The notes under the pieces are model-generated. The model was not told the DNA's origin and searched no databases. It worked only from the letters and a program-made list of their open reading frames with translations. A DNA stretch of 61,743 nt, filler included, from Hausera hauseri (lineage: Eukaryota): the NCBI GenBank assembly GCA_046269625.1. It is 11 parts of 11 records of this genome, joined end to end, with 100 filler letters (N's around TTAATTAATTAA, not from the genome) between each part and the next. Parts side by side here need not be neighbours in the genome. Positions count along the whole stretch, not along the records: positions 40,688 to 48,819 come from JBJURY010757652.1; 10 more parts are not named here. One strand, given 5' to 3'. Positions 22,892 to 61,743 of this stretch are shown here, piece after piece (the first letter of the stretch is position 1; every line of letters starts with the position of its first letter). The translations under genes were made by a program, and so were the position numbers.

Positions 22892-22988
22892 CGTCTATGA
22901 ATGCGATCGTCATATTCTCACATTTTTTCATTTTGGATAATTCTTTGTTATAGTATAAACGTAAAATACGCTTATCGAAAGCATTTAA

Positions 22989-29473: not shown

Positions 29474-30885
29474 CGGGTTGATTTCCCTCTTAATTTTATT
29501 TAATCGACACCAATACATAGGTATTTTCGGTTGATTCGAAAAAAAAATTGAATAAATTCTTTCTTTGACTACAACGAATATTTATAGTTAAATGAGTAAG
29601 AGCTATATTTGCAAAAATGACTAAGAGTTAAATAAATGTTTGACCAACTGTTAAATGTAATTTCCATCTTTATCAATGACGTTACATAGATGAAAATTAT
29701 TATTCATGGAGCATTATTTCCTCCGTTAATGTTGACAACTGTTTATTTAAGAAGTTTCTAAGTTCTTGTACCGAATCAAAGGACATTCTACATCGCTTCA
29801 TTTCTAAGTCGGGAAACACCTTACGATCTAGGACATTTATATCAGGAGAATACGGACTTTGCTTCACAATGCGACAATGTTTGCGTTCAAGAAACTTACG
29901 TGTCGCAGCTGACACATGTTGGGGAGCATTACCATGCATTAATATAAAATTTCCCCACAGTATATTTCTCCTTTGCACGACATCATATTTATTAAAAGCG
30001 GTGATAACTTTGTCAAGAAAGTTTATGTAACATTTAGAATTGACTGTTTCTCCGTGTTCTAAGACTTTCAAATGATACAATCCTCTAAAATTGACTGCAA
30101 CAAAGCAGTGAAATTTTGTGCCAACAGCTTTTCTTTTTGACATTTCAGTCCTGTCACTATAATGTGGGACCCAAGACTTCCTTGTGATGTGGTTTCCGAT
30201 CGGATAAGCATAAAAGGCTTTCTCGTCCGTAACTACCAGATACCATGTAATATTTCTGTTGTGTTGGAAAACGTCTAAGAGATCCTGACAACAAGTGATT
30301 CATTGCTGTTTCTGTTCCTTATTTATTTTGTGAGAAATCCATTTTTCTGAAATGCATGACCAATTAAGATCTTCTGTAATGATTCTTAACACCATTGCCT
30401 AGGACAATCCTAAACGATCTTCTACCTCTCATGTAGTCATTTTGTTATCATCAGAAAGGAAAGCTTCAATTTGACCGGCAAACAACTGTCTTTCTTCACA
30501 TTTCTTCCGCCCGCTTCCTTCCTTTCTATTGAAGTTTTCCCTGGAATTGTCTTTAAATTCTTTACAAATTTGCTGAACTCTTCGCAACTTTATGACATTT
30601 TCACCCCTTGTGGTTATGATAACGTTATGAAAGTCTGTACCCTTGTAATTATTTCTTCTTAGGGTTTCAATAACAACATAGATTTCGTTACTTGAAGGTT
30701 TCAAACTTTCAATTAAAATCAGATAAAATTTCAATATAAAAGCAAAGCAAACAAACCTTTAGGATTTCTTGAAACGATAATTCAAATTTTTCGACATCAC
30801 TACGTGATATTTGATTTATTAAAATAAAACATTTATACTTATGTATTTTTGTCGACTAAATAAAATTAAGACTGAAATCAACCCG
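29474..30885 (-). mobile_element. Full-length decayed mariner (DD34D spacing) with TIRs and TA flanks
   Basis: TA|CGGGTTGATTTC...GAAATCAACCCG|TA; LVVTDEK, LMHGNAPQH, PYSPDINVLD with 34 residues between second and third catalytic positions. Confidence 0.9.
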
Positions 30886-30909
30886 TAATAAATTAATCCA
30901 AAATCGAAA

Positions 30910-31841: not shown

Positions 31842-32447
31842 AGTTGCAAAAACCAATGGAAGCTATTACGAATGTTGGAGCATTTGGAACTAGGGTGCAA
31901 GTAAAAGACTTAATTAAATGTGAGACAAAAGTCTTTAATCAAAAATTGGAGCAAGAATTTAGAATAGCCGATGAACTGGTGGCTGAAGCTATACTTGGTT
32001 GTGATGCACTAGCAAAGTTAAATGATATGTGTATGAACTTAGAAACCCAACAAATTCAACCATATCGAAAAACAAGGAATGAGAAAAAAAAATATAGTAT
32101 CAATTGAAGATGATATGTTAATAACAGCTAGAACAGAAATTGTACTCAAGGCATTAGTAGAAGGCCGAGACGAAGAAGACGTATATATCGAACCAAATAT
32201 GATTTTTATGGACAAGAATGAGCTATAGATAGCCCATACCATTGATAATATTCGAGAACACCAAGTGGTTGTTCGGATAGCTAACGTTTCAAATAAACCA
32301 AAATTATTGAGAAAAGGGACAAGAATTGCCTATGTATATTTGATAAAGGATATAGGTAACAATGCTACGGAAGCTATTATTTCCACTGTACAGGAATTAT
32401 CCGAATTTATGGAAAGACAATGACAAAAACCACGAACAGAAGCCTGG

Positions 32448-35015
32448 ATGCGATTAGAAAGTAAATCAATGAATAAATTGCAAAGTCATCTTAACAAAAA
32501 CAAAAATATAACAAAACTTGTCAAGACTCCTACCATATGGAATGATTATGACCTGTTCGGTAAAGATAGTACATTGACTGATGCGGAAAAAGAAGGTACA
32601 ATAAAAATATTACAACAATATAAAGATACCTTTGCCATCGATGAATATGATATGGGTATTATACCCGTCATCAAACACGAAATTAAACTGAAGACTGGAA
32701 TGGAAACTCCAATTAAAAAGAGGCCATATCGGCTTAACTATGACAAACGAGAAAAGGCTAAAAAAATAAAAGCCGAAATGAAACAGCATGACATAATTAG
32801 ACCAAGCAACTCACCATGGACAGCACCTATCGTGATGGTACAAAAGAAGGATGGGTCCATTAGAATGTGTGTGGATTATCGTGCTTTGAACGAAGTAACG
32901 GTAGACAATACCTACCCGTTACCGAGGATTGACGAAATATTAGACAAGCTGAAAGACAAAATGTTGTTTACCACGTTGGACTTACAAAAAGGTTTCTGGC
33001 AGATAGAAGTACAAGAAGAGGACAAACAGAAAACAGCCTTCGTGACGGCAGACGGACATTATGAATTCAACCGGATGGCATTCGGAATGAAGAACGCCCC
33101 GGCAACTTTTCAAACAGCTATGGATATAATTACCATGGATGCTCCACACATAATGTGTTATGTGGATGACGTTATAATTGCGTCAGCTGATTACAAACAA
33201 CACAAGGAACATCTTAAGGATATGTTGGAAAGATGTGCTCTCTTGGGAATTAAAATTAGTTTAAAGAAATGTTGTTTTGCCCGAACTAAAGTTGACTTTT
33301 TAGGCCATACAGTAAGTAGAGATGGAATTAGTCCACAAATTGGAAAAATCAACAAAATCCAAGACTTTCCAGTTCCAAAGACTGTTAGAGGAGTTCGAAA
33401 ATTTCTTGGCCTTACAGGCTATTATCGTAAATTTGTTAAGGACTATCAACAGATAGCTTCCCCTCTACATTCATTACTACAAGAGAATTCCAAGCTTGTT
33501 TGGACCCAAGAGTGTCAAAAAGCATACCAACAATTAAAGGACTGTTTATTAACTCCACCAATATTAGCGTACCCTAATATGTCAAAACCATACTTTCTAG
33601 CAACGGATGCAAGTAAAGTCGGAATTGGAGTAGTCCTGTCACAAAAAGATGATCAAGGACAAGAGCACCCCATATCATTTGGAGGAAGGAAGCTGAGGAA
33701 GCACGAAAAAAATTACTCTACAATTGAGAGGGAACTGCTTGCTATCGTCTACGCGTTAGAACAATATGGCCAGTATCTATCTGAAACAAAACCAATTATT
33801 GTTTATACTGACCATAAGCCGCTACAATGGTTAAAAAGCCATAAAAATCCAAATAGTCGCCTAATGAAATGGGCTATGTTACTTCAACCCTACGATTTGA
33901 AGTTTGAATATAAAGCTGGTAAAGCTAACGCAAATGCTGATTATATGTCAAGGATATCTGAGGATATAGATCAAAAAGATAAAGAGATAACAGATAAACC
34001 AGGGGCCATAGAAGCCATTTGGAGTATAACAGAGCAAGAAAAATCGCTACAACAAAGACAGCAGAATGATGAACAGGTAAAGCAAATTAAGGAATACCTT
34101 CAGAAGAAGATTGTGCCAAAGAATAATGATCTCTACACCCATTTGACAAAATTTGCTGAAAATTACCAGATAAAAGATCGTATATTATATTATAACCATA
34201 AAGGAAAATGTGTCGTCGTTGTTCCCCAAGAAGATATAAAACTTTTGTTAATACAATACCATGATGGTATGTTGGGCAGACATCACTCAAAGAAACGGAC
34301 TTTAGGTCGATTGAAAAGAAAATACTATTGGTATAAAATGTCCAAAGATGTAGAAGAATGGAGCAAAAGTTGCCCTATTTGTGCAACGCGAAGGAATACG
34401 GGCTCGAAAATTAAGGTTCCTTTGAAACCATTAGAATGCCCACCTGCCCCTATGGAGTTCTCAGCCATGGACATTCTAGGACCGTTGCCAATGACTATAA
34501 ATGGGAATAAGTACATGTTGGTTTTTGTTGATTTATTTTCCAGATGGCCCGTAGTAGTTCCGATACCAGACCAAAAAGCACAAACTATTGCACAAGCGTT
34601 TGTTGAAGAGATTGTATTCAATTATGGAGCACCTACTAAACTACTAACAGTTCAAGCTCCAAATTTTATAGGAGAAGTAATGGCGGAGATTTCGAAGATA
34701 TTCCATATATTACAGTTAAAAACTACCCCATATCATCCACAAACTAATGGAGCGGTCGAGCGATTTAATGGAACCTTAACCAACATGCTTGTAACTATGG
34801 TTAATGAACGACAGGATGACTGGGATGAATACATCAAACCATGTTTATTCGCTATAAGGAATACAATTCATCCTGCGACAAAAGAAACTCCGTTTTATTT
34901 AATGTATCTTAGAGATACGCACATGCCAGTTGATATAGATTTTAAAATGCCCCTGTCTCATCTAAAGGACATGGAGTATAAAGAATTATTAGAAGAAAAA
35001 CTTGGATATGTGTGA
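32448..35015 (+). CDS. pol: Gypsy Pol: reverse transcriptase, RNase H, integrase
   Basis: RMCVDYRALN, YVDD, TDASKVGIG, TDHKPL, MDILGPLP, YHPQTNGAVERFN; frame continues after a single TGA. Confidence 0.97.
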   Translation: MRLESKSMNKLQSHLNKNKNITKLVKTPTIWNDYDLFGKDSTLTDAEKEGTIKILQQYKDTFAIDEYDMGIIPVIKHEIKLKTGMETPIKKRPYRLNYDKREKAKKIKAEMKQHDIIRPSNSPWTAPIVMVQKKDGSIRMCVDYRALNEVTVDNTYPLPRIDEILDKLKDKMLFTTLDLQKGFWQIEVQEEDKQKTAFVTADGHYEFNRMAFGMKNAPATFQTAMDIITMDAPHIMCYVDDVIIASADYKQHKEHLKDMLERCALLGIKISLKKCCFARTKVDFLGHTVSRDGISPQIGKINKIQDFPVPKTVRGVRKFLGLTGYYRKFVKDYQQIASPLHSLLQENSKLVWTQECQKAYQQLKDCLLTPPILAYPNMSKPYFLATDASKVGIGVVLSQKDDQGQEHPISFGGRKLRKHEKNYSTIERELLAIVYALEQYGQYLSETKPIIVYTDHKPLQWLKSHKNPNSRLMKWAMLLQPYDLKFEYKAGKANANADYMSRISEDIDQKDKEITDKPGAIEAIWSITEQEKSLQQRQQNDEQVKQIKEYLQKKIVPKNNDLYTHLTKFAENYQIKDRILYYNHKGKCVVVVPQEDIKLLLIQYHDGMLGRHHSKKRTLGRLKRKYYWYKMSKDVEEWSKSCPICATRRNTGSKIKVPLKPLECPPAPMEFSAMDILGPLPMTINGNKYMLVFVDLFSRWPVVVPIPDQKAQTIAQAFVEEIVFNYGAPTKLLTVQAPNFIGEVMAEISKIFHILQLKTTPYHPQTNGAVERFNGTLTNMLVTMVNERQDDWDEYIKPCLFAIRNTIHPATKETPFYLMYLRDTHMPVDIDFKMPLSHLKDMEYKELLEEKLGYV

Positions 35016-35299
35016 AACCTAGCTTCACGACATATAAAAATATGCCAGAAAGAATATAAAAATAGATACGATGAGAAAACGAAGTCCCATGGTTTCAAAC
35101 CCGGAGATAAAGTCATGCTACATACGCCGTTAAATAAGAAAGGCAGAACACCAAAGTTGGACAGACCATATAAAGGTCCATATATGGTCCAAAAAGTAGA
35201 CGAAACGAATATCTATTTGAATAAAAACAAAAGGAACAAGATAGACCCGATAAAAGTCCACGTAAACAGGTGCAAGCCAGCAACCACAGAATCAAGGAT

Positions 35300-36093
35300 T
35301 AGAAGTGGAAATCCTAATTTATTATTAGTAACAACGTTTATGGTATTGAGTTTAGTGACTTGTGCATCAACTCAGTCTCTCGATGTCAAGTATAAAGCTG
35401 TTCAAATCGGAAAATACCCATGTGTAAAAATTACAGCCAACCGGAACTTAACAATAGATGAATATATACATATATTCATATCAAAATTACCTATTGTGGA
35501 AAAAGCGACACCAGAAAATTGTGATTTATACCACAATCATTCAGTACATATTTGTTGTGGACTTTCATTTGGAGAAACGTATAGAATTCAGTACGCAATT
35601 GGAAAAAGTGATCACGGTTATATAACATATTTCTCTTTCCCAGGTACTACCCATTACTTCCATCGACCATATTTTCTTATTTCATTTTATTCCAAGGTCA
35701 TGAAAAATGGACCTTGCATAACAGCAGAACCAGACGTACAAATCACGAAGTATGTAACATTCCAATATGAAATATTCGATGGCACTAACAACACATATTG
35801 TAAACCAAATTACCAAAATCCATATGTGTTGTCCAATTATTTTTAATAAATAGTATATGATATACTATTGGACCACGTACAATGGTTATACATGGTCAAA
35901 AACAGCAGATGGACCCGAGATAATAGTAAGATCCCCGGTAAAGATAACCCCTACTTCAACAAGAAAAGCAACTACCTTGGTGACACAATCAAGTATACTA
36001 ACTACATTACATAAAATGGTAACGAGTCCCACCATGGAACCTAAGAAGAGAATCAAAGAACTAGACATAATTATACAACCAACAAATTACTCA
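35300..36093 (+). pseudogene. Signal peptide, Cys-rich ectodomain repeats and Thr-rich stalk fused downstream of integrase
   Basis: LLLVTTFMVLSLVTCASTQ; PCVKIT..NCDLYHNHSVHICCGLSFGETYRIQY; TPTSTRKATTLVT. Confidence 0.65.
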
Positions 36094-40687: not shown

Positions 40688-40729
40688 AATTGTTATTCCA
40701 TATATAATCCAAAGTGAATTTTCACCTCC

Positions 40730-40918
40730 TTGGGAAAAGAATGTGCCATTTGTTTGAGTGAATGCTCAATGGACCAAATAGAATTAATTACAAGTAAGCA
40801 TCAATTCTGCCGTCAGTGCATAAAAGGATGGTTTGCACCTGAAACCTCTTGTCCAAAGTGCCGCACTAACATTAAATTATTCCAATATGGAAATAACTAT
40901 TATACTGTAAAGAATTGA
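40730..40918 (+). CDS. RING finger protein, C-terminal fragment
   Basis: CAIC..SKHQFCRQC..W..CPKCR (one ligand Cys reads Ser). Confidence 0.75.
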   Translation: MGKECAICLSECSMDQIELITSKHQFCRQCIKGWFAPETSCPKCRTNIKLFQYGNNYYTVKN

Positions 40919-41153
40919 TAAATAAAATTTTAGTATTAAAATTTTGTGATGTTATAGAGTATATTGTATTTTAGCTGAAATGCAAAAGGTCAAAAAACTG
41001 TAATTCCAAACACCTAGACAGTATGAATATGTCAGACCAGTACAATCTAATACAGTACAATATATATTACATTATCAGAATAGACAATTCGGACCAGCGT
41101 TATTTATTAAAAGACAAATAAGTTACTCCAAGGCTATAGTATTAGATAACTCT

Positions 41154-42197
41154 ATGAGAGATACACAAAACAGAAAGATATCGTTTTTAAAATACCGAAA
41201 TGCGCCTATTCCAGAAGAACTAGCACAAGCATATGTTAAAACCGGATTATACAGAACTACAACAGGACAAATTAAATGCATTTATTGCCAAGGAAAATTC
41301 CAATATAAACAAACGAAAGATCGACAAAATGAAATACATAAGAAATCACATGCTACTTGTCCTTATTTATTAAATCTCGATATCAGTAATATACCGTTTA
41401 TAGATACTTTTGTTAAAAGACCTGATTCAGATAAGGATACGAATTATGACACAACAATGTCAGTAAAAATAATTTACTCAACGGATAATACAGTGAAAGA
41501 AAATGTATATTGGATTTCAAACACAGTGCAAAAGAGAAAATTAACCTTCAATGGAAAAAGAGAAATTGAATATCTAGCTGAACAAGGACTAATATTGATA
41601 TCTAAGGAAGAAAAACAGTATGTCAAATGCACTATATGCTTAAAAGAAACGTACTGGTTAGAAAACCCCGATCAACGATGTCCAAAAATATTACATACCA
41701 ACAAGTGCGAATATTCAGCAAACAGAACCTTCGATAATCACACCAAGAGACAATGCAGAATACAATTCAATATCGGAAAACTATATGAATGTTACCAAGA
41801 TAATTTAGCAGCTACATCAGTGATATCCAGACATCCTACCAAACGAGAAAATATTCTACAGTACATTAAATATCGGACAGAAACTCAGTTGGACTGGTCG
41901 CCAAATGTATTCGAACTATGTCAGAATCTAAATTTTATCTCCCCGGAGAAAGAAAGAAAACACGAACGAAATATTCTCAACAACCTTTATCTGCGTGGTC
42001 TAGAATGCGTGATTTGCTATGTGGATGTAGCACAAGTCATTTTCTTGCCTTGCGGTCATTTGAAAACATGCGAGAAGTGTTCAAATAGAACAGCGAATTG
42101 CCCAGTTTGTAAGAGTATTATAGAAAGACAAGTGACGTATTTTCAGTTTTCAGAAGAAAATAGTGAAATAACTCTGACAGATATGGGCCTTGATTAA
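41154..42197 (+). CDS. Inhibitor-of-apoptosis (IAP)-like protein: BIR, divergent BIR, RING
   Basis: BIR1 CIYC-x16-H-x6-C exactly; BIR2 LAEQG..CTIC..H..C; IAP-type RING CVIC..VIFLPCGHLKTCEKC..CPVC. Confidence 0.9.
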   Translation: MRDTQNRKISFLKYRNAPIPEELAQAYVKTGLYRTTTGQIKCIYCQGKFQYKQTKDRQNEIHKKSHATCPYLLNLDISNIPFIDTFVKRPDSDKDTNYDTTMSVKIIYSTDNTVKENVYWISNTVQKRKLTFNGKREIEYLAEQGLILISKEEKQYVKCTICLKETYWLENPDQRCPKILHTNKCEYSANRTFDNHTKRQCRIQFNIGKLYECYQDNLAATSVISRHPTKRENILQYIKYRTETQLDWSPNVFELCQNLNFISPEKERKHERNILNNLYLRGLECVICYVDVAQVIFLPCGHLKTCEKCSNRTANCPVCKSIIERQVTYFQFSEENSEITLTDMGLD

Positions 42198-42337
42198 TAA
42201 CCAATATAAATTTAATTGAATAAATGTTATTTAGTTCATATGAATTTGTTGTGATAAAATTGAATAAATTTATTGTAGAATTACCGGTTATCAACAGTAT
42301 GACTCTAATCAACCTTAGTGAGTAAACAGTTCAAGTA

Positions 42338-42787
42338 ATGAAAATAAAGAATCAACCACCTAAATTAGGATATCAATGGTACAGATTGTATAATAGCTCT
42401 GTACTCAACAAGATAACCGAATTGGGATACTCGAAATATTTGGCAATGATTGCTATTAAAACTAATGAGAAAGCAGAATACGAAGCATCACCAAAAATGA
42501 TTACCTATATATACCAAGTGCAATTAATGGATAACAATTACTATCAAGGAATTTAATATTTGATTTCAACATTAAAAGAAAAAGAGAAAAAAATAAAAGA
42601 AAGATGCATAGACCTTAGCCGTGCAGTTTGGATTTGTGTAAGTTGTAGAAAAAGTCAAGCCAATATATTTTACCTACCATGTGGACATATTATTCATGTA
42701 AGATTTATGTACCTAAAGGTTCCATGTTATCAAAATGTGCTATATGTGAATTGTCCATAGACGAAGTGTGTACTATATACATATAAT
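42338..42787 (+). pseudogene. UBA-like, coiled-coil and IAP-type RING (IAP C-terminal half without BIR)
   Basis: KITELGYSKYLAMIAI (UBA-like); CVSC..IFYLPCGH..CAIC with a stop and a frameshift. Confidence 0.65.
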
Positions 42788-42790
42788 AAA

Positions 42791-45420
42791 ATGGATAATA
42801 ATCTAGTCTTCCTTAATAACAATGACGCAGGGACACCAGTACAACACTCGATCCGAGGATGACTGGCACAGGGTCAATCAACAGCAATTAATGAGATTGC
42901 TTTAGATGAAGGAAATATTAGCCCTACTAAAAGTTCGGATACGTTGAGCACAACATCCGCCCCAGGAACACTAACTGATATTGATTCATTACAATTGTCT
43001 CCTGCTGCGATACAACATCAATGGGTAAGAGGAGTTAATGGTCGACGAAGGCCATCCCGAGAGCAATATCGTAATGCATTTAACTCACGACACTTGACGC
43101 AGAGAATAACTAACCAGGAATTAGAATGCCGAACACGTTATGAAGTATATAATATAAATGTAAATGATCTCAGAATAAGACAGAATCGAACGTATGACAG
43201 TATACAACAACTAATTGAAGAAATACAAGATATACCCCGACAAGGAGGAGGAGTTGCAATAGAAACAGATGTTATAAATAATGGTATAAGATTGGACGAA
43301 GTCGAATGAAAAATCACCCAAACAGAGCAAAAAGTGAATAATAATAGTATGGGTTTAAACAAATTGGGTGCGAAAACTGGTCAACTTGCACAAGAGGTTA
43401 GCATCTATTCTAGACAAATGCGTGATATTCGACAGCAAACTATTGAACATATAGCTGCATTATATAGGAATAGAGAACAGATAGATAATAACGAAAGACA
43501 AGTAAGGCAAAGGATAAACTATATGCAAAATCAAGTAACAATTATAGTAAATGAACAGGACTAAATTCAAGAAGGAAATAACTGTACTAGAAACCAAATA
43601 GAAACGTTGCCGCGAGATATAGATCGATTGAATGAACGTCTTGAGCAAGTAAGGACAGAGGAAATAATAGCCCAACGTCAGGAAGAAGTACGCACACCCG
43701 AATTCTCAGTAGAGGTAGGTTCAATGTCTTGTGAAACCTCCGATATCAATAGCAGCAACATGGAGCCACAAGGAGATAATCGAGGGCCAATGGCTCATTT
43801 AAACGGATATAACTGCGACCCTAACAATAATAACGCGGCCTACGATTTACCAAATTACAACGAAAGGCGAAGAGAAGAGAAATATCAAACACTTCCTCGT
43901 CTTCAACCATATGAAGGACGCATATCGGACTTGGAATATTTCCTGGACTAATATGAATCTCTGGCCACAGCTATGCATTGGAATGATGCCAAGAAAATAT
44001 CACTTCTATTAGTGCATGTGAATAAGGATTTAAGGATGGCAATAACGCGTCTACCTCCACGAGTAAACGAAACTTGGTTGCAACACAGAAAAAGGATTTT
44101 ACAAAATCAGCAGGTCAATATATAAGAGAAACGATATCTAAAATTTCAAAATTGCAAACAGAAACCAAACGAATAAGTGTTGACTTATATTAATAGATTT
44201 AAAACAGCAATGAGTAGATATTTTAGCCATAACGCAAACACCTTTGGTGCCATGATTATGAAACAATTTGTACTTGGACTTTTACCACCCTTAAGAGAAG
44301 GAGTTAAGTTCCATACTCTTAATAACATTAACGAATTGATAGACTATACTAGAAAAATGGCAACACGGATAGATGAGATACCCTTATGGACTGATCAAAC
44401 GCAAATAGCAGCAGTGGCTACAACATCATTATTAGTTAGACCAGATGTACCAAATCGTAGTAATTCACCTTGGAGAAATTCTTCAAGAAGTCAAAGTCCT
44501 AATCGTCAAGGTACCAATACCCCACAGCGAAGTAATACTCCAGAGAGAGGAAGCTTTAACCAGTCATCCAGAAATTACAATCAAAGAGACACACAATACC
44601 AGCAAAGTAGGGGAAATTACAATGATCGACAGCGAAACGATAAAACACGAGGTGATTCAAGAGACAAAAATGACAACAGAAGTCGATTCCCTAGTACAAA
44701 AAGATATAGCAACGACCAAAACTTCGGGCGTTACGATTATAGAAACCCATTCTATAGACGAGATGGTAATTGAACACGATACCCAAACAACCGTTAAGAA
44801 GAATCAAAATCTAATTATTCTAACGACAGGCGAAGTGAAAGTCGTGAAAGGTTTAGAAGAGATGATAGTCGAGAAAGATATAATAATTTTAATAGAAACG
44901 ACAGTAGAGAAAGGAATAACCGGCGAGGTGATAGTAGAGAAAGAAATAGCTTTAGAAATGACAATAGAAGTGGGTATAATAATTCAAGATCAGGAAACTA
45001 TAACAGAAGACGTGATTATACTTCATCTCGACGAGAATCGGATAGATATAATAGAAATCCTATTCCATACCCTTCAAGAGATCAAAACCGAACTCCTTCC
45101 CCCAGATCAAGTAGCGATAATAATAGGTATACTCGATCACCGGACTACAGTTCCAGACGAAATGAATCATCGCCAAATAGAACTACCTCCACATTCAGGT
45201 ATAATAGGAATGTGACACCAGAATATTCCAAAAATTTCAATAAAAGGAAAGTGGATTCAACAACGCCATCTTACAGCAATCCTTAAAAAGAAAAAGGAAA
45301 TTTATCAGATAATAAGAAAAGTAATAACGACGAACGAAATGTCTCACCTCGTCGTTAGGTAACTTTTAATGAACAAACTAAATCAGCCTTTACGGGCTTA
45401 GTAATAGCAAAACCCATAAT
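42791..45420 (+). pseudogene. gag: Gag: coiled coil, retrotransposon capsid domain, long Arg/Ser/Asn/Asp-rich tail
   Basis: One frame from ATG 42791 with about ten premature stops; PYEGRISDLEYFLD*YESLATAMHWND, CKQKPNE*VLTYINRF, QFVLGLLPPLR. Confidence 0.8.
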
Positions 45421-45559
45421 GGAACACCATCAAGTTACATCCAAACCACCAACCAATAGTTCTATACTGGAAAAACCCTTCATAACTAGAAAGCATTTGG
45501 ATCAGGCAGAACGGAAAGTACCAGATATTCAAAGTAATACACTCCCATACATGTTATGG

Positions 45560-46830
45560 CCAGAAACTAAAGAAATCAAAAATTTACTTTTGACCTTTGT
45601 AGCAATAGATAAAATTAATGAAGAAGCACAGGAACCCAAAATTAACCGAATAAGAATAGACAACATTGAAGATGATTTGATAATTGAATTAAAGAATGTA
45701 TATCTGGAAAAAGAAAAACACTATGAAAATCTTAGACAATTATTCTGTGGAAAACTCATAGTCGGAATAGAATTACCATGGCTATTTAAAGAAATACAAT
45801 TAAAAGAAACTGATATCTTTGGTACATTCAGTGTAGACCAGAATTTTAACTTACCAGATGATTAATGGGAAAGAGAAAGTACATTACCACAACAATTAAA
45901 TAATTTACGAAAGAGTACAAAACCAAACTTAGTCGTCAAGGATCTCCATATTTCATTTTTCCAAGCAACCCTTCGTACAGGGACGACGGACGTCCCGAAC
46001 ATAAAATAACATTTAATACTACCCTAATTCCAGAGGCAGTACTAGAGCGCATGGACATGGATATTGTTCAGAAATGGGATAAACTGTTTGTAGACAAGAA
46101 AACTAACCGAATAGAGTTCACGGACATCACCGAACAAGGACCAACTTGCATGGAAGGGATTGATAAAGTCTACCTTAAAAGGACTGATATTCGAATCAGA
46201 AGAAATGACCAGCCATGTGCTATAATTACCAATCAGGGAAAAGCTCGATTGAAAATTAATGATAAGATGGTAATAGTTTCTAAGGAAACTAAGATACTCC
46301 CTAATTACCCCTATGAAGGAGACTATCAGATTCAACCTTTAGGTGATTGCCCGATATACTTAATACAATTATTTAAGGAAACACCCGTGTTAATTGTGTA
46401 CGAACCCGTGAAGCAGGACAAAGAGATAGTTCTCACTGGTAGATGTATAACTAAAGGAAACCAAAAGGGACTTGCTCAGGTTACAGCTAAAAACTTAGAA
46501 GGAGAAATAATACTTAATAATCATGTATATCCAAATATACCAGATACTACAAAGTATACTGAATAGAGTCGACGGTCTAATCTCCAACGCCAAGAGTCGG
46601 TAAGTGAATTTATGAATAAGTATTTGCCAGGAAATATAATCATCGGACGATGTTTACGAGAGCTATTAAACACTTTGAAAATAAATTACGTAAATTTAAC
46701 CGCTATTTATGATTTGGAGCAAACTAACAAAAAATACAAATGTTTAGGCTTATATAATGGTCATAACTTAGAAATTATGGCACAAAGATGTCAATACCAA
46801 TACCTAAAGACAGTACGAGTGGAATACAAT
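45560..46830 (+). pseudogene. Two degenerate DEDDh (REX4/ISG20-like) exonuclease domains
   Basis: FVAIDK..NRIRIDNIEDDLI..QLFCGKLIVGIEL and LAQVTAKNLEGEIILNNHVYP..YLPGNIIIGRCLRELLNTL..IYDL. Confidence 0.55.
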
Positions 46831-47427
46831 GTGGCATGGATAATAGAAAGCCAAAATACGTTACGAATAGCCTTTCCAGCAATAGACGAAATGGAGAAAA
46901 CTGAAGAAGCTAGAGCAATTTCAGGAATTGAACCAATCGCTCAAAGACATCCGGATATGGATTCCGACGAATATTCACACGAGTCTGAGAGAATTAGACT
47001 AACCGGGGAATGGATAGACCAGTATGATGATAGATTAGTTGCACCAATTACCCAACCGAAGGTTCTGCCCCAACGACCAACATAATTCGAAGATATCCGA
47101 GATTCAATACAACCCAGTATATCTAAGAAGGAACCTCAGATAATGGACGATGAAACATATGAAATCTTAGATGCTGATATTATATCTATATCAGATACGT
47201 TCCATTATTTCGGAAATACATTATCACCAGTTGAAAACCCAAAGATTATTCCGGAAGTGAATATTCCACCAGGATCTATAACATACGGCGAACGCTCGGA
47301 GTTAGTAATAGAAAAAATTACAGCTAAATTACAAATGACTGATCCAGCACCCAATGAGGTATGGGATGCTTTATGACAATATGAGACACAGCCATTAATC
47401 AATCGAATAGAATGCGAACCATTACTT

Positions 47428-48486
47428 ATGCCATTGACAATGGATGATATATTTTGTTTCTTAGCTGCAAGAAAATTATTAAAGACGCTAGGAAGAGAGT
47501 TAAGACGAAAACACCAAAGAAAACCACCGTATATAATAAATATAGAAATTAAAACCAATAAACGCGAACAAATAATTAAAGTAACAACGGGAATGTTTAC
47601 TAAATTCACAGACCTTCGAAGAAAGGTACTAGACGAATTAGATCTCGAAACTAATATAATAGCAAAAACTAATTTTTATGGCAGATTAGCCGTTGACAAT
47701 GATCATGTTGTGGATTATGGACTACTTACTGGAAAGATCTACCAGATTACTATGGAAATAGTCAATAAGAAAAGGGGAGGAAGATCGAGGAAATGTGATT
47801 TTAACCCAGTAAGTGACGATGAAGAAAAACCTGAAGAGGAAGAAAAACCAGGAAGGCAAAGAAAGAGAAGACATTTGTCACGAAAACGTAGGGAACAACA
47901 GGAAACAGTAGAAGATATATTATATGACAAATTCCAACGATTTACCATTAGTGACGATGAAAACGAACCAACACAAAATCCAATTTCAGGAACATCAAAC
48001 CAGAGTGACGTAAATGTACCAAAAGTGACATTGACAACTCATGAACTTCTAGAACAGTTAATTAAGAAAGCAAACCCAAAACAACTTAAGAAAATACCAG
48101 CAATTACAACAATTACACTACTTTCCATAATAGAAACTGCTGGAAACTTTTCGTCACAAATCACAAGGTTATTACACAAATACGAAATGAAAGGAGGTTT
48201 AAATAAAGCATTGACACGGTTATTAAAGGACTGTGATCAGAATCGATTATTGATGGCTTTTGGATTCATAGTGGTTAGTTTTAAAAAACAAACAGCGATC
48301 GATGCTAAATTACATCACACGATAAGGGAATTAGCCTATCATATGGATGAGCTAACAAAAGATTGGGTAACAAAACATGGTGGTTGGGATGAAATCCTCA
48401 AGAAATTCGATCCCACCACATTAATATATCCTAAGAATACCAATATCTCTTGGTGGTACAAATCATTCACTTGCTACTATACTTAA
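47428..48486 (+). CDS. BH3-like motif, ubiquitin-like domain, basic/acidic linker, Bcl-2-family domain
   Basis: LKTLGREL; INIEIKT..FYGRLAVDNDHVVDYGL..KKRGG (47536-47781); BH1-like DQNRLLMAFGF; BH2 DWVTKHGGWDEILKKF. Confidence 0.8.
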   Translation: MPLTMDDIFCFLAARKLLKTLGRELRRKHQRKPPYIINIEIKTNKREQIIKVTTGMFTKFTDLRRKVLDELDLETNIIAKTNFYGRLAVDNDHVVDYGLLTGKIYQITMEIVNKKRGGRSRKCDFNPVSDDEEKPEEEEKPGRQRKRRHLSRKRREQQETVEDILYDKFQRFTISDDENEPTQNPISGTSNQSDVNVPKVTLTTHELLEQLIKKANPKQLKKIPAITTITLLSIIETAGNFSSQITRLLHKYEMKGGLNKALTRLLKDCDQNRLLMAFGFIVVSFKKQTAIDAKLHHTIRELAYHMDELTKDWVTKHGGWDEILKKFDPTTLIYPKNTNISWWYKSFTCYYT

Positions 48487-48819
48487 TAGCTGTAAGCAGC
48501 TTGAATACGACAAAAGCATAAGAAGATTATGATTGTTCCCGACCAGAAATAACAGACACACTTTCATTAATGAATATAGGTAAGTGCCAGAACGCGAATC
48601 CGATATCAGTGAAAAAGAGGGTCCTTACGATTATAATTTGTATCAGAGAATCAGTTATGAACAAGTGCAAGTAAAGGAATGCCAGGTTAATAAAGTAATA
48701 TTCGCTTACAACTGTGGTCGTAATTTATGGAATTCAGTGATTATTCCATTAGGATTACCTAAACCTGTAACAATAACGGCCGAAAATTGTAGGAAAGCCA
48801 CAGATTGGATTCACATAGA
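48471..48819 (+). pseudogene. env: Signal peptide and N-terminus of a chuvirus-glycoprotein-like envelope protein (cut by contig end)
   Basis: LLLYLIAVSSLNTTKA*EDYDCSRPEITDTLSLMNIGKC / YNLYQRISYEQVQVKECQVNKVIFAYNCG..ITAENC. Confidence 0.65.
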
Positions 48820-48919: not shown

Positions 48920-48989
48920 TACATGTTTGATGGGTTGAATTGAAACATCCATATAATCGTACAGTATAACCAATTGCATTACCAAAGCA

Positions 48990-49198
48990 CAGTGGATGAA
49001 GAAGAAATTCGTGATGCATTCTGGGTTTTTGATAAAGATGGCAATGGCTTTATTTCGGACGCTGAATTAAGACATGTAATGACAAACCTCGGAAAGAAAC
49101 GTACCAACGAGAAAATCGATGAAATGATTCAAGAAGCTGATATTGATGGAGATGGTTAAATTAGTTATGAAGAATTTGTTATAATGATGACAACGATT
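48990..49198 (+). pseudogene. Calmodulin C-lobe (EF-hands 3-4) pseudogene fragment
   Basis: [47 protein letters not shown] with a stop in EF4. Confidence 0.9.
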
Positions 49199-50171
49199 AT
49201 TGCTGCTGGTTGCCCGAAGTGCTGGATGACAAAGTACACAAAGGATGGACAGGAAAAGAATGAAAAGTAAGATATTAATGCTTAGATGTAAGTTTATATT
49301 GATATAGCAATGGAAAATGTAAACATATTTGACATTGGTAAAGAAATTCCATTTGCCCATATGGGACAAATTCGTGTACAAATGACTAATTTGACAATGA
49401 AATACGGTGTTCTTACTGATGGATCTAAAAATGTAGAGACGACTCGTTTTCGAGTATAAGGCACAGTAAAAGGATTTATGTTCACAAAATCGTAGACATG
49501 GATGATCAGTAATCAGTGTCAAAGTCAATGTTCGAGGTATTTAATAACGTACTTTGATCATTTAGGTATAGATCTGGCTCACTAGGAATAGTTTGTAGGC
49601 ATTCTTGGGATGTTCGATGTTTATTTGTTATATTTGTATATTTTGGTCATTAAAAATGAATGAACCCAAATTAGGCAGTTGTACTGTCTAACATACAGAA
49701 CCATATTGGATGAGGAAATATCAACATAACATTTGCTGTGTCTGTCATTTAGCATTAAAAATGTTTTTCTTTCAACATTCGAATTTACAGTAACCTTAAT
49801 GAATAGAGGATCGATGAGAGGTTAAGTGGCCATACTACAACTTCTGATATGAATATTCATTGTCAGTGAAATAAATGTAGGAATATGGATACCGCTTTGG
49901 ATTTTCGAATATTCAATTGAGTACTTGTTCTATATCTTTCAAAGTTTGCATGTCAAGTTTTGGTGAGGTGTGAAGGTTGTTTTGATGATGTTGATTATAT
50001 TTTGTTCCCATGGATACGCCATTTTGGTGGTGCAGGTAATATCATGGCAATTAGAGATGCATCTATTAATAACATTTGATGTTTGATCATATTTTTTGAC
50101 ATATTTTACTGAAAAATAACAAAATTTTGCCAAACATTTTATTCGATAAACACAAAGAGCGTTAACAAATG

Positions 50172-50910
50172 TTATATTAATTGATATCGAGTCCATGAAG
50201 CAGATGAATTTGCAAATCTCAGTTGCAATGACTGATCTGTATAAATGTTCAACATGCAGCTATTGGTACTTATTTGCATGAAGGCACTTTTACAATATGG
50301 CTGCCTGTTCAAACACCTAAAAATTATAACTTAACTTTGTTAAGCACGAATTATTAGCTTACTTAAAGGTACAATACATTGGAGACACGTCAGAATAAGT
50401 CTCCAATAAGCCTTCTTCAGCGTTATTATTCACAACCATCGATGATGGTGACAATTTTATCATTTGTGATACAACCTGGTTCAATACACAAATGACGTCT
50501 ACAGAATGTGGTGAAGTACACGACCAATCACATAAACCAGATGGAGACACATATATGATGCAGTCTTGTGGTATGGAAACGCCGTTCAGTTCACCTGAAG
50601 GCCAGTACGTAGTCTGTGTAAAAATTGACCCATCAAAATTCAGCCATCCATTTTTATCATAGTTTCGTTCATTGACCAAATCTGATATGCCTACATAAAA
50701 ACGGTTAGCCATCCAATTCAGCTGTTTTATGTTATCCAAATCTGGACCATTGGGTAATTGACCATTCATAGTTTCACAATATCGCGCAGCATCCCATGTA
50801 GTCATTGATGTTACTGAATTTCTTTTATAATATGTTTTACCATTAATAATCGATGTAGCTGCATTGGATAACCCAACTAAACAGAGAAACCAAAAGAAAG
50901 TATCAACCAT
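50172..50910 (-). CDS. Secreted C-type lectin + PAN/apple domain protein, two exons (50910-50363, 50316-50172)
   Basis: Signal peptide MVDTFFWFLCLVGLSNA; CTLD (YC..GQL, FYVGISD, W..GELN, QDC, DWSC, VIC); 46-nt GT-AG intron; exon 2 CLNRQPYCKSAF..SCML. Confidence 0.8.
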
Positions 50911-51619
50911 ATTTGAAACTGAAATGAGAAGGCTAAAAAACTGACGTTTACATTTTTGAACAACTGTTTTATTCTGCGTTTGACAAAAACAAATGGCGTT
51001 GATGCTCATTTGTTGTTCTCTCTTTTTTCTATGCAACTATCCAAGATATTTGAAAATAATGAGAACTATTTGATGGGTTTATTTTACATACACAACAAAT
51101 GAATAACAATCAAACTAATAAACTCAGTTGGACTGCGGTAATAAAGGAGTTGAAAATTGGTTGATGAATTTTGATTAGTTTTGTTTTTACTTTTGTGTGC
51201 CGTATGGAATTGATAAAAATATTTTTTTATTAAAGTCGCCATTGTTCCACAATTTACTTATGACTAGATATAACTTGTGGATTTTCCTCCAGGATAAGGA
51301 AAATCTCGTAAACATTGTAAACGGTTTTGACTTTACCATAATTAACACAAACCTCAGGGTGCGATGCCTGACCACAGATGGTCAGGTCAATCGGCACAAT
51401 AAAAATTTATAACTGGATGTCAGAAATGGTACAATTATTGAATGAAAAGTAATCATGGATATATCTAAGGCCTGTATCGAAAAGTATTGACGTTGCATAA
51501 AGTACATTTTTGTGTGAAAAGGCGTTTGATATATAATGATTGGGTTGTATGAAGAAACACGTGAGTGCTATGAGCAACTGTGCGTAGGTGTTTTGAAATA
51601 TCTTTAGTATTTTAATAGC

Positions 51620-54937: not shown

Positions 54938-55332
54938 CCTAAATTCTTATCTACCGGCATTTGCCTTCAATTTAGCACTGATGTTATAATTGCACTAGCT
55001 ATCAAATTATTACACATTAACATCCCTTTAATGCCGCCGTGACTAGCGACGACATCACGCGCAATACATAGTGGACAATACACTAACCAACTTAATGCAC
55101 TCCAGAAGGGTGCGACAAAATGAACATCTGATTTAGATCCAATGGAGTGGTAATAATTGTAGTATTACTTTTACAGTCAAGCATAGCAGTTGACTTTGCA
55201 CTGAAAATTAGTTATACGAGTAGGGGACATAATTGAGCGATGCTAACTCTAGTTGAACTAGTTAAGAAGTGTGGATAAATTACCGAGAGACATACAATTA
55301 GTGGTAGTCTTGAGATCGTGTGACAATAGACT

Positions 55333-56800
55333 TTGGTAGAGACACCGGAGAGAAACATGACAAAAAAAATGGTGTCAGCACCTCCCCCTACAGAAGAAAG
55401 GATGGTGACTGTACAGCAGCACCAACTCGAGCACATGATAGCGGAACATACAAGCATGAAAAAGGCACACGAGGAGATGAAAGCCATGTGGGAACAACTA
55501 CAAGCACAACAATCTACGGTCACTGGAGCCCGACCTCCACCAAAATCAACTGCAGGAAAAGACGATCCCAATCGAAGAGCACTGGATAAGATTGACAACA
55601 TGGTGAGCAAGATTGATTTAAACAGCAAACACCAGAACGTTTGCACTTTTGTGTAGTCCTTTACAGGAACTGACTCGAAATCCTTTAAGTCTTGGATTTC
55701 ACAAATTGAGAAATACTCACACTTGGTGAAGGCAACACAGGAGGAGAAAAAAGAGCTGGCTACACTACATCAGACGGATTAGCCAACGATTTTATCAAAC
55801 GGAGATTCAGAACACATCCAGATGAAGACTGGGAAGCTTTCAAGAAGACATTAGTGAACAGTTATGCTGAGGTTACAGATATGCAATACGCGATTGCTGC
55901 TCTCAGAACAATCCGTCAGGAAAGAGATGCACTGGTCCAGTTGTACAGTGATAGAATGCTTAATATGGCCGAGGATGCATACATGGGGCAAGACATTATG
56001 GCAGAAGATATCGGCAAGTTACTGATACCTATATTCATTGATGGTCTTAGGAACACACCAACGAAAATAAAATTGATGAAAGATGACCCAAAGACGATAG
56101 CAATTGCGATTCAGACAGCGGTCGATGAAGACAATTTCAACAAGAGAGTCAATATGAGACTAGGCAGAAAGACGCCAAACGATTGACAGGAAGAACACAT
56201 GGACGTAGATCACTTCCAAACAAAATGGCGATGATGACAGCACAGAGAACATGATGAACGTTGGGACGACAGATATTACAGACATAATGCAGTTCACAAA
56301 GTAGAAAGGGATACCAAATGTGGCAAAGATGGACACATTGCCAGAAATTCTAGAAGCAAACAGGAGACAACCAACAACCCCCAGACATAATGCTGCAAGT
56401 TCAAAACAGTGTTACAAATGTGGCAAAGTGGGTCACTTTGCAAAATTTTGCTGAACAGGAGACGGAAGTCATCACAGGCAACAGGAAAACACATATTCTG
56501 TTCCGTAAGCTCCGACCCGAACAGGAAGTTAGCAGGAGCCACACAGGAAATACGGACACAGAGGAGCAAGATATGAAAGTTACCAACATTTCAGTACAAT
56601 AGTCAGGGAATCAAACATTCTAACACAGCAAAAGAGAGATACCATGCACGAACATCTAGAATTATACCGAATATGATGAGGTCTATGAGAAGGTAGGAGA
56701 ATCGAAAATTCAAGAAGAAACCACAGAATCAGAACACGAATACACGAAATGATAAACAGAAAGAAATGAGATTCGCTCAGAACAAGTAACATGACAAACT
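55333..56800 (+). pseudogene. gag: Gag with capsid domain and CCHC knuckle
   Basis: FKSWISQIEKY, LRTIRQ..FIDGLRN, CYKCGKVGHFAKFC. Confidence 0.85.
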
Positions 56801-57056
56801 AGTAGGAAGTCGCAACAGGCAACACACTGAAAACCAAAGTCAGAAGCAGGGCTACAAACACGAACCAATGGAAATAGATGCATCTCATAGAAAGCAGCAA
56901 ACACAGAATTTCCCATTCCCACCCAGCCCCAAGAAGCAGAAAGAAGTTAACACCCACATCCCCAAACCCAGGAAAATCAACGTCCCTTTCCCAGAAGAGA
57001 AGTCACGATAACACACCAGCGGTAGTAGAGGCGAAAGAGACCACAGACTATAGGAA

Positions 57057-60000
57057 TCATAGAGGCGAGATTAACAGCCTTGAAGATCCAAGCTCTTGTT
57101 TAATATATTTTGAGAAGGTCAGAGTCAGATGCTTAGTGGATACAGGAGCCCAAGTCAGTATTTTGAGTGAGAGAGTCTTCAGGATGCTGAAAAAACAGAA
57201 TAAACTAACTCGGAATAACACGGACTTAAGATCTATTACCGGAAGTACACTACAAGTTTTGGGTAAAGCAACATTAGAATTTCGAATCGGCGAGATAAGT
57301 GTGAAACATACGTTCATGATTGTGAGAAACATGTGTAGAAGTGCTATACTGGGAAGAGACTTTTTGCTTCAACACCATGCCAGAATATACTTCGATCTGA
57401 AGAAAATACGAATACGTGATACATACATTGAATTACATGATGATACGCATGTAGCATCCATTATACGAGTCAAACAAAAAGCTTTGTTGAGACCAAATTC
57501 AGTAAATATTATAGTTTCAGCTATGAAGAAAAATGACTATTGGCATATAGGAGACAATGTAACAATCAGCCCATAGAAGATACTGAGATAATTGAAGAAC
57601 CAGGTCTACAAGCAGTATCGGGAATAGTGAAGTTAAACAAAAAGAGAGAGTTCCCAATAATGATAATGAATTTTACCGGAAAAACAATAAAGTTAAAGAA
57701 AGGCTGTATTGTGGCGAAAGCAGACAAGAAAAATGGAGGTAGCTGTGAAACAATAACTAACAGCCAGAGTAATATGCGCCGAACAACAACGGTTGAGACA
57801 CGAAACGACAACATCACAACAGACACAGATCCAAAACGGAGTCATAGAGACCAAGTGCTGCAGGAAATCAAGAGCGGGTTATGGAGAGTGAAGTCGACGA
57901 ATATAGTGGCGGAAGTAAAGCAAACGGAAGATAGACTTACAAAACTACTTGAAACATTGAAAGTCGATAGACAACATAAGGAGAGAGTCGAAAAATTTAT
58001 AACCCAGCATGCAGATGTTTTTGCAATCACGGATATGGAGCTTGGGCGCACGACCACTGTCACGATGGAGATCAATACAGGCGATCATACACCCATTAGC
58101 CTCAAACCTTACAGAACTCCATTAGGCAATCGGGAGATAGTGGAAAAAGCGGTCGAAGAAATGCTTCAAGCAGGTATCATTGAGCGTACGAGATCTGAAT
58201 GGTCGTTTCCAGTTGTCATCGTGACTAAGAAAGATGGATCACACAGATTTTGTGTTGATTACAGACAACTGAACGCCGTTACAACCAACGTCAGTTACCC
58301 CATGCCGCTCATAGACGATATACTAGGACTTTTAGATGGCACGACTTACTTTACCACCCTCGATGCCAGATCTGGATTTTGGGCTATACCAATGTCACCG
58401 GATGCCAAGCAGAAAAGTACCTTCTGTACCCATACTGGTTCATATGCATGGAATGTGATGCCCTTCGGTTTGAAAGGCTCACCCGCGACCTACATGTCGT
58501 TAATGAACATTGTACTGGAAGGCCTACAAAGCTTCGCGTTGGCATATATAGATGATGTGCTATTTTTCACGAAAGGAGATATTGAACACCACTTAGCACA
58601 CGTTGAGAAAGTCTTTGATCGAATGAGGTAGCATAAAGTAAAACTAAAACTTAGTAAATGCGAGTTCCTCAAAGAAGAAACAAAATATCTGGGATTCATT
58701 ATTACCAGAGAAGGAATCAAGCCAGATAAAGAAAAAGTAGCAGCAATCAGACAGATGCCACCACCACGTACAACGAGAGAAGTTCGAGGATTTTTGGGCA
58801 CTTGCGGATACTACCGTCGATTCATAAAAGATTTCTCAAGAATAGCTGAACCACTAGTGGCCCTGACAAGAAAATTCGCCAGATTTCGATGGGAAGAAGA
58901 ATGCCAAAGAGCGTTTGACCAGCTGAAGCAAAGTTTGACAGTTGTCCCATTATTAGCATATCCCGATACCAGCAAAGGATATATTTTATATACGGACGCT
59001 TCCGATTACGCCATAGGCGCCGTTCTTACCCAAGAAGACGGTGAAGAAATTGTCAATGGCAAGCCGAGAAAGAAAGAAAAACCGATATACTTTCTCTCAC
59101 ACCGATTAAGCAAATCCCAGAAGAAGTGGCCCGTACTAGAGAAAGAAGCATATGCTATCCATTATGCTCTACAAAAACTCAACTTCTATTTGCATAACAG
59201 TCAGTTTGTAGTCCGCACTGACCATATGCCTCTGAAAGCGATGTTAAGATCCGACGTCCAGAACAAGAGAATGCAACAATGGATACTTAACCCTCAAGGC
59301 TATAATATTTCTATAGACTACATCAGAGGACCACAGAATACAGTGGCCGACATGTTATCAAGAATATCAGAATCAATACCAGCAAAATAACCAACTGAAG
59401 CAACAACAGACGAAGCAACTCCAGATATCGATGACCATACATTACAGATTTCAGTAATCAATTCTGATCAGAAACATCTATATAAAGACGATAGCAACAC
59501 TGACTCAACAAATGAAGAACATACTGAAACAATGTTCGCTATGAGAACCTAGCAAAATAAAGACGACACGTTAAAAAGAATCATTGACGATCTGAAGTCA
59601 GGGAAACCTGACAAGTTACAAAAGTGGCGGAAGTTTACACTTGAAAACGGTGAACTATACAGAATTGGTGGAACCGAAAAACACAATTTCAAAGAATGTG
59701 TCCCGAAACAGCTGAAAGAAGAGGTCATTAAGCAATATCACGATGAACTAGGTCATCTAGGCAGAGACCGTACCACCGAAATGATTGCTCGTAAATATTA
59801 TTGGGCTAACATGAACAAGGTGATAAACGAATATGTGAAACTCTGAAAAATGCAAACTACGGAATATGGAAGCTTTGCGGCATCCACTTCAGGACCCTGA
59901 TTATGCCTCTTTCCCATTTGAAAAGATTAGTTTGGACTTATCGGGACCTCACCCAGTTACAGCATCAGGAAACAGTTACATCTTGCACATTGTAGATATT

Positions 60001-60720
60001 TATAGCTGTTGGCACGAACTACATGCCCTACCAGACAGATCAGCAAACGGCATTATCGAAGTTCTAATGGAGGAAGTAATCCCATGCTATGGTTGTCCGA
60101 AAATTCTGATAACCGATAACGGCAGGGAATTTGTCAATAAGGCAATGACAGACACCCTTCGAGAGTTGAACATCAAACACATCACAACTGCTACATACAA
60201 CCCGGGAGCGAACGGATTTAATGAACGTCAGCATAGCACGCTATGTGATGTTATCACCAAGTACGTAAATAACCAACCGAAAGACTGGGACATGTACTTA
60301 AAGCAGGCAGCCATGGTAGTTAGAATCAAGGAGAATGGGAGTCGACGATATGCACCATATGAAATGCTATTCGGAAGAGAACCCATTTAGCATTGGACAA
60401 CTTGCTGAAACCAAGACCAAAGTACAATGGTGAAGAGTTCCACAAATATGAGACTTCATGAGATATCCGTCAACATCAGTAGGAACTTAAGGCACGCACT
60501 TAAACAGAGAAAAGATCGCATTGAACCAAACACAACGAATCAAGAATTTGCAATAGGAGATAAACTATACTACAAGAATCACCATCGGTCCTCAAAAATG
60601 GATAATAGATGGATCCCAGGATACCAGATAGTTGAACAAAAAGTTCCAGTTACCTATGTCATCAAAAACCAGTATACGGGTCAATCCACCACTACAACCA
60701 CCAGTCAACTTAGGAAAGAT
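57057..60720 (+). pseudogene. pol: Pol: protease, RT, RNase H, integrase
   Basis: LVDTGAQVS, RFCVDYRQLN, YIDD, YTDASDYAIG, SLDLSGP, ITDNGREF, YNPGANGFNER. Confidence 0.95.
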
Positions 60721-61743
60721 GATACGACATTTCCAGAAGAAAGTAAACCAGAAAATGACACACGTACACGTAGATCCAGATATGTAGTTCCACCCAAAGA
60801 AAGTAGTTCAGAAACTACAACAGATAGCACCAACACCAATACAGACGATGAAGAAAGTGACACCCATTATGAAATTATACCTATGCCAAGTACAACTACA
60901 ATGCAACCAGAGAAAGCTAAACTGGCCGACAACGACGAGGAATTAGATACTAAAGCACGTTATGAAAATACCAGAGCAGCTGCTAGAAGAAGGTTCGACG
61001 AGGCAAAAACCAAACAAATGAAAATAGCAAGAAAAATGAGAGAAATGTCATCCGAAGATAGCGATGTCCCATTACTAGAAAGAAAACGAAGATTGCAAGA
61101 CAGAAAAATCCGACAAGCTCAAGAAGACAAAACAGATAACGAAGACACACAAGAAGAACAATCCAGCGATAAAGCTACAGAGGAAAACCCTTCCGATGTT
61201 ACTCCTAATGAATACTCGGAAACTAAAACATCCTAAATGGAATGTATAGTAAAACACACCAAACATACCCGAGACCCAGTATCTGATAATGGAGAAAAAC
61301 CATGAAATGAGATCCCACGCCAAGCAGTATTGAAGAAGAAATATTTGAAGCAAGCAACCATTCTCAGAAACCAACAAGATGGGGGAAAAAACAGCAATGG
61401 ATGCAAAAATTGCGGAAATACGCAGAGTTGTTGGCGAAAAAGACAAAGAAATGAAATAGATTCAAACACAAATAGGGGAAGTGACACTGGTTAAACGAAA
61501 TGCAGAAATGCAGATCCACGCACTTCAAAACCAGGTACAGGCAAAAGAAGATATCCTACACGATATGGAAATACAGACCATGAAACTGGAGAACGAAAAT
61601 AGGGAGAAAACTGAACAATCGCTAAGTTACGGAAGCAATTAACGAGTCTAATAAACGGCAGTATGAATACGAATGAAGCAACACAACGGGTACACGAAGA
61701 TGATGTCCACGACAGGACACAAGAAACAACAATAGTCGATAAG

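Follow-up and report, generated by a model that had tools for sequence, protein, structure and literature searches.

Planarians carry giant gypsy-like LTR retrotransposons, the Burro/GYPSM1 elements (Arkhipova and Yushenova 2019, PMC6431247). According to that description, the planarian Burro encodes Gag, a Ubi2/SUMO-like domain (PF11976), a BCL-2 domain and an in-frame Env, followed by PR, dUTPase, RT, RH and IN, and Burro elements also bear BIR and RING motifs. Flatworm errantiviruses are reported to have a GAG-ENV-POL order with an HSV/gB-type Env (PMC13524379). In planarians, the Burro1 IAP reportedly shields stem cells against death mediated by caspases (Lee et al. 2026, Dev Cell, as cited in PMC13465017). 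Finally, insertions of near-authentic ubiquitin have been described in cytopathogenic pestiviruses (PMC8310069), and the precedent of inserted ubiquitin as a processing signal, which an earlier note on the present DNA had invoked, is a real one.

The window analyzed here, a stretch of 61,743 nucleotides from Hausera hauseri, consists of eleven short contigs joined with N-linkers. The finding sits on one of these contigs, at 40688-48819, and nothing past 48819 belongs to it. The type of element points to a flatworm as the probable host. The stretch 47428-48486 belongs to a gypsy-type retrotransposon that bears an envelope, is decayed and occurs in many copies; it is the middle of the long polyprotein of this element, which runs in the order Gag, middle region, probable ubiquitin-like domain (Ubl), linker, divergent Bcl-2-like domain, hydrophobic helix and Env (Table 1). 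We favor, with moderate confidence, the explanation that this is a decayed Burro-like polyprotein in which the Ubl would be an integral part and the tail helix of the Bcl-2-like domain would double as the Env signal.

Layout, decay and class of the element

Table 1. Features along the contig at 40688-48819, in window coordinates. P0001 is the related protein described in the text.
Feature	Position	Strand	Evidence
RING finger remnant at contig start	40727..40912	+	Pfam zf-RING_2, E 4.9e-8
IAP-like accessory ORF, open, with two stretches of BIR and a C-terminal RING	41004..42194	+	Pfam BIR, E 1.1e-6; zf-C3HC4_3, E 1.4e-12
Second RING-bearing accessory remnant, broken	42308..42784	+	zf-C3HC4_3, E 0.003, X read at stops
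Broken gag: coiled-coil-like head, capsid region, Arg/Ser/Asn-rich tail	42788..45283	+	Retrotrans_gag
Capsid region within broken gag	about 44048-44281	+	
Middle polyprotein part between Gag and Ubl	45359..47373	+	Aligns to P0001
"BH3-like" octamer LKTLGREL	47479..47502	+	Unsupported as BH3
Probable ubiquitin-like (beta-grasp) domain body	47530..47760	+	ESM Atlas; conservation in P0001; position of PF11976 in Burro
Basic tail ending in Gly-Gly	47761..47781 (Gly-Gly 47776-47781)	+	3/7 columns before Gly-Gly identical to P0001, one indel
Conserved block after Gly-Gly, R-x-R-KCDFNPVSD and acidic run	47782..47826	+	13/15 identical to P0001
Acidic/basic linker	47827..48012	+	24/65 identical to P0001, poorly conserved
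Divergent Bcl-2-like helical domain	48013..48414	+	PDB phmmer, best E 0.01; 96/134 identical to P0001
Hydrophobic helix behind BH2; not in frame in the window copy	48435..48518	+	Hydropathy peak in P0001
Start of env (Monjiviricetes/HSV-gB-type fusion protein), truncated by contig end	48519..48819	+	PF24664, E 2.6e-5

The Pfam match to Retrotrans_gag, made with X read at stops, had an E-value of 7.1e-5 and 23.4 bits, just under the curated cutoff of 24.1, and a frame scan showed many stops across the broken gag. The middle part of the polyprotein is also broken, with stops at 45863, 46564, 47083 and 47374 and a frame change near 45910, and no Pfam match was found in it. With about 670 codons and 50% identity to P0001, it is the largest unexplained piece of the polyprotein. 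On the 5' side of gag, we observed three consecutive RING fingers (40727-42784), one of which lies inside the BIR-BIR-RING ORF; this ORF is open across 397 codons, while the gag and env that belong to the same copy contain stops throughout.

The element is a multi-copy repeat. In total, 21,638 contigs of run X1, which is possibly the source of the window itself, and 2,600 contigs of run X2 aligned to the contig sequence, with more than 3,500 variant places among them. A HMMER search over 1.84 billion representatives returned a sole match, P0001, a protein of 1963 aa located on a 7.6-kb contig, which aligned with the window from 44546 to 48817 at 66% identity. In P0001, an Arg/Ser-rich Gag tail, the middle region, the Ubl, the Bcl-2-like domain and a complete Env (PF24664, E 1.9e-63, residues 1345-1952) follow one another in a single frame. 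With the window ORF as bait, a word-based search of proteins of 202-646 aa gave 0 related proteins among 3,705 candidates. Two further word searches used P0001 as bait: residues 1000-1963 found P0001 itself alone among 6,785 proteins of 1079-3436 aa, and residues 1020-1700 found no relative among 7,994 scored proteins of 30-1078 aa; these Env-baited searches covered proteins up to 3,436 aa, which is short of the size of a full Burro ORF1. No related locus was found in metagenome or viral contigs.

Downstream of the stops in the middle part, the window copy carries a frameshift near 48435-48456, and its env is broken twice, at 48519 by a stop and near 48611 by another frameshift. Since P0001 is a single frame and the window copy has these breaks, 47428-48486 is a piece of a polyprotein. 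The reading of this stretch as a stand-alone Ubl-Bcl-2 gene was rejected, as its bounds are those of decay (the stop at 47374 and the frameshift near 48435-48456). The letters cited in the earlier note were all found, in one frame that is open from 47377 to 48483.

Neither the three forward frames of the contig nor P0001 contained a CCHC knuckle (C-x2-C-x4-H-x4-C), and Pfam gave no match to a MATH domain in 45359-47535 or in P0001; the D. tigrina element described in PMC6431247 likewise has no MATH in ORF1. Because CCHC knuckles are lacking, the element was filed as Burro-like and not as Burro1. The Burro-like features that are present are the Gag start, the order of Ubl, BCL2-like domain and Env (on modest evidence), the BIR and RING genes, and the many copies. 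Judged by its sequence, the element is one more, divergent Burro-like family, whose layout has already been published.

No protein likeness was found between this contig and the other ten contigs of the window, and none of their pol genes can therefore be assigned to it. At 831-5614, a gypsy integrase runs into a hydrophobic stretch followed by about 3 kb of broken ORFs, with a RING finger last; by its looks, this could be where a large element keeps its 3' accessory genes, and it has no protein likeness to the contig of the finding. A gypsy pol at 31842-36093 has RT, RNase H and integrase in an 863-aa ORF, the integrase tail being continued by a stretch that is signal-like and by a region with weak likeness to Fn3 (E 0.09). 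The element at 54938-61743 is an ordinary broken gypsy element with a Ty3 capsid, aspartic protease and RT, and thus other elements of the same assembly do encode a protease. On the minus strand, 21770-25945 holds long ORFs (375, 384, and 253 aa) with no convincing Pfam match, one of them with a membrane helix, and 50362-51036 holds a C-type lectin ORF (Pfam E 6e-5). The contig that follows that of the finding starts with a decayed calmodulin-like EF-hand fragment (48960-49200, plus strand, by eye), and at 29450-30909, 95-nt inverted repeats that are 82% complementary flank a mariner-like transposase remnant, the transposase being recognized by eye.

The probable ubiquitin-like and Bcl-2-like domains

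The motifs that had been likened to ubiquitin, FYGR at 47674 and DYGL at 47713, are read in the open frame. The Ubl had no Pfam match and no PDB sequence match. The ESM Atlas recognized the Ubl piece with a value of 2771. Of its 30 matches, three were named family sets, each of them ubiquitin or Rad60-SLD; these clusters (PF00240/PF11976) scored 0.90-0.91 with 149-153 shared features, which is below the 170 typical of same-family matches. PF11976, the family described for Burro, is thus one of the families returned for the window Ubl. AlphaFold models reached a pLDDT of 37 from one sequence and 41 from two. In the latter, the order strand-strand-helix-strand-strand-strand fits a beta-grasp, while four fold searches named neither ubiquitin nor Bcl-2 with models that were too poor to test folds; of the structural check proposed earlier, the order of strands and helix agrees and the fold searches were uninformative. 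Taken together, the ubiquitin-like domain at 47530-47760 is probably real.

For the Bcl-2-like part, 8 of the 14 PDB matches found by phmmer at E≤10 belonged to the Bcl-2 family, and the best of these, A1 at E 0.01, spanned BH1 to BH2; a two-sequence profile reached A1 at E 0.11 only. Pfam gave no Bcl-2 match, and the ESM Atlas was blank. AlphaFold placed eight helices and a tail helix at a pLDDT under 50, and the fold searches barely tested this part. A BH2 motif, WVTKHGGW (48364-48387), aligned to the BH2 of A1 and is retained in P0001. The BH1 region, CDQNRLLMAFGF at 48232-48267, reads DQNR, and the glycine of NWGR is absent in both the window copy and P0001, so that, of the two motifs reported previously, only BH2 is intact. 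A review associates loss of the BH1 glycine with a BH3 groove that is either unlikely or changed (PMC8998228).

The same source gives a conserved Leu and Asp for BH3 (L-x-x-x-G-D). The octamer LKTLGREL, which had been called BH3-like, has R/K where the Asp is expected in both copies, P0001 has no L...GD, and a match to the loose pattern L..[ILV]G..[LFI] turned up in 24% of the 500 shuffled versions of P0001. It was therefore rejected as a BH3 motif. Whole P0001 matched nothing in PDB but a death domain (E 1.1), and a Pfam Death match on the same helices (E 0.14) was judged to be chance.

Both domains are conserved more strongly than their flanks. The Ubl body is identical to P0001 in 56 of 74 columns and the Bcl-2-like domain in 96 of 134, compared to 246 of 496 upstream (45913-47376) and 24 of 65 in the linker. 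The basic, NLS-like run that had been placed downstream of the Gly-Gly is indeed there, at 47854-47892 inside this poorly conserved linker, and its P0001 counterpart is weaker. The order of a Ubl just before a Bcl-2 domain held up (ESM Atlas, the PDB match and the Burro precedent in PMC6431247), with the folds themselves graded as probable at most, and the Ubl-then-Bcl-2 reading is probably right.

The hydrophobic helix, the Gly-Gly tail and the proposed release of the Bcl-2-like domain

Hydropathy marks just two helices of P0001 as strongly hydrophobic, residues 1337-1355 and 1911-1929, and these flank the Env ectodomain. The first of them comes after BH2 and overlaps the start of the Env profile, and it was for this reason read as both a Bcl-2 tail anchor and an Env signal; Bcl-2 proteins are described as carrying a tail anchor after BH2 (PMC8998228). 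As predicted from these positions, the helix at 48435-48518 likely has both roles. It is in frame in P0001 and out of frame in the window copy, which is itself incapable of making the anchored protein. The P0001 Env matched the Smed_errantivirus_6 row of PMC13524379 at 18 of 32 residues, counted by eye in one N-terminal block.

In working copies, the helix after BH2 would serve as a signal-anchor inside the polyprotein and direct Env to the ER. Once cut by host signal peptidase on its far side, it would hold the Bcl-2-like domain by the tail at the cytosolic face. The second helix of P0001 would close the Env ectodomain and return the chain to the cytosol for Pol, and the linkers would be cleaved by an aspartic protease of the element itself, which is expected after Env. 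The Ubl would stay in the protein as an integral binding domain, without removal at the Gly-Gly. The Bcl-2-like domain and the neighboring IAP may then dampen host cell death, and without the BH1 glycine this would probably not occur via the canonical BH3 groove. A second death-control module of this kind, anchored by the Env helix and lacking the BH1 glycine, would be a testable extension of the stem-cell protection reported for the Burro1 IAP.

The tail of the Ubl, KKRGG at 47767-47781 in the open frame, was the basis of a different proposal, namely that a host deubiquitinase or Ubl protease (DUB/SENP) cuts after the Gly-Gly and frees the linker and the Bcl-2-like domain. The Gly-Gly comes after a probable Ubl and persists in P0001. 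At 47776-47781, the 240 X1 and 36 X2 contigs showed no variant of at least 2%, while five nearby codons vary, including codons just before and after. However, 8 of the 13 codons in 47758-47796 had no variant (silent sites included), all three Gly-Gly pairs in the region aligned to P0001 are kept, and the block that follows is retained at 13 of 15 positions, and the Gly-Gly therefore does not stand out from its neighbors. The Arg before it is private to the window copy, being Lys in P0001, and place 47774 differs in all 51 X1 and all 11 X2 contigs; "RGG" was thus rejected as a family feature. The conservation of the Gly-Gly that the earlier note had asked about is thus seen in P0001 and the aligned contigs, at a level that does not exceed that of the adjoining sequence. 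Lysines abound in the tail; P4 is Lys in both the window copy and P0001, and P5 is basic. From the conserved Asp-Tyr to the Gly-Gly there are 21 residues in the window copy and 22 in P0001, with the register set by eye. The corresponding spacing from Asp to Gly-Gly in ubiquitin is 17. The Gly-Gly would thus lie 4-5 residues beyond the ubiquitin register, with a spacing that differs between the copies through an indel (register by eye). For SDE2 and USP5, the P4 Leu (L73 in ubiquitin, L74 in SDE2) is reported to occupy a hydrophobic pocket of USP5, its loss only halving SDE2 cleavage, and the residue to compare with the basic P5 is ubiquitin R72 (PMC13572447). This precedent and the pestiviral one are real, and the basic P5 agrees with them, whereas the Lys at P4 and the longer, variable tail count against cleavage at this site. 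The argument for such release had also leaned on the lack of an encoded protease. The contig stops at 48819, inside env, and PR comes after Env in published relatives, which makes the absence a contig-end effect; given their GAG-ENV-POL order, a protease would be expected past the contig end. Overall, we consider host cleavage after the Gly-Gly unlikely. More doubtful still is a scheme in which two host enzymes would excise the Bcl-2-like protein, with a DUB or Ubl protease cutting at the Gly-Gly in front and signal peptidase cutting behind the tail anchor that doubles as the Env signal. If this were true, a membrane-anchored death regulator would be produced immediately, ahead of the protease of the element and independently of it. 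A retrotransposon that is processed by host DUBs would be a novelty, on evidence that is thin. Our literature searches found no retrotransposon that uses a Ubl in this way, no report of DUB processing of a retrotransposon polyprotein and no account of an anchor-signal overlap in Burro-like elements; Lee et al. 2026 and Grohme et al. 2018 may bear on the latter two.

Two other readings concern the missing pol and the domains themselves. The family could be non-autonomous or have its pol in a separate frame. If it were non-autonomous, encoding Gag, cargo and Env only and borrowing protease and polymerase from a helper, the Ubl and Bcl-2-like domains would stay joined to Gag until the helper cut them. 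The P0001 frame, which closes some 35 residues past the second helix and contains no protease motif, would fit such a family, as would the fact that no pol is linked to the contig at 40688-48819. Yet P0001 may end at a break in its 7.6-kb contig, and published relatives of the same order have PR-RT-IN after Env, and we regard a helper-dependent family as very unlikely. One or both domain calls could also be chance likenesses, of a small alpha/beta domain and of a helical domain with a lucky W-x4-GGW. Such an error would account for the lack of Pfam matches for either domain, for the low shared-feature counts of the Ubl and the blank ESM Atlas result of the helical part, and for fold searches that name neither fold. 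Against it, the structure models searched were too poor to test folds, and two separate methods give the same two domains in the same order and the same place before Env as HHpred does in Burro, making a chance origin highly improbable. The reading that we prefer thus remains that of an integral Ubl in a Burro-like polyprotein, with a shared anchor and signal helix behind the Bcl-2-like domain.

As a separate observation, the block following the Gly-Gly (47782-47826) is better kept than the Ubl itself; it may serve for binding, or be where a protease cuts or a kinase phosphorylates.

Comparison with described systems

The ubiquitin of pestiviruses (PMC8310069) and SDE2, the USP5 substrate (PMC13572447), share with the window element a Ubl unit followed by Gly-Gly inside a longer protein. 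They differ in that, as described, theirs keep an L-x-x-R-L-x-G-G tail in register with the fold, whereas the tail in the window is lysine-rich, longer and variable, and its Ubl is too divergent for any ubiquitin sequence match. With canonical proteins of the pro-survival Bcl-2 type, this element shares the GGW of BH2 and the C-terminal membrane helix (in frame in P0001), but not the glycine of NWGR in BH1. The Burro1 B-IAP (via PMC13465017) is likewise a BIR and RING accessory gene in the same element, although that report concerns the IAP and not a Ubl or Bcl-2-like domain.

Closer likeness is seen to Smed_errantivirus_1-6 (eLife 2026, PMC13524379), in which Env is also located between Gag and the expected Pol, the Env ectodomain is bounded by two hydrophobic helices, and the N-terminal block is alike; the passages compared do not mention a Ubl or Bcl-2 cargo, and "ubiquitin" has 0 occurrences in the main text of that study. 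Burro1/GYPSM1 proper is described as having two or three CCHC knuckles after Gag and a MATH_TRAF domain before the Ubl (PMC6431247), whereas the window element has no CCHC knuckle and no MATH match; the two are likened here by the published description. In both, Retrotrans_gag comes first, a Ubi2/SUMO-like domain, a BCL2-like domain and a mononegavirus-type Env are found in one frame, BIR and RING domains are present, and many copies occur, some decaying with stops and frameshifts.
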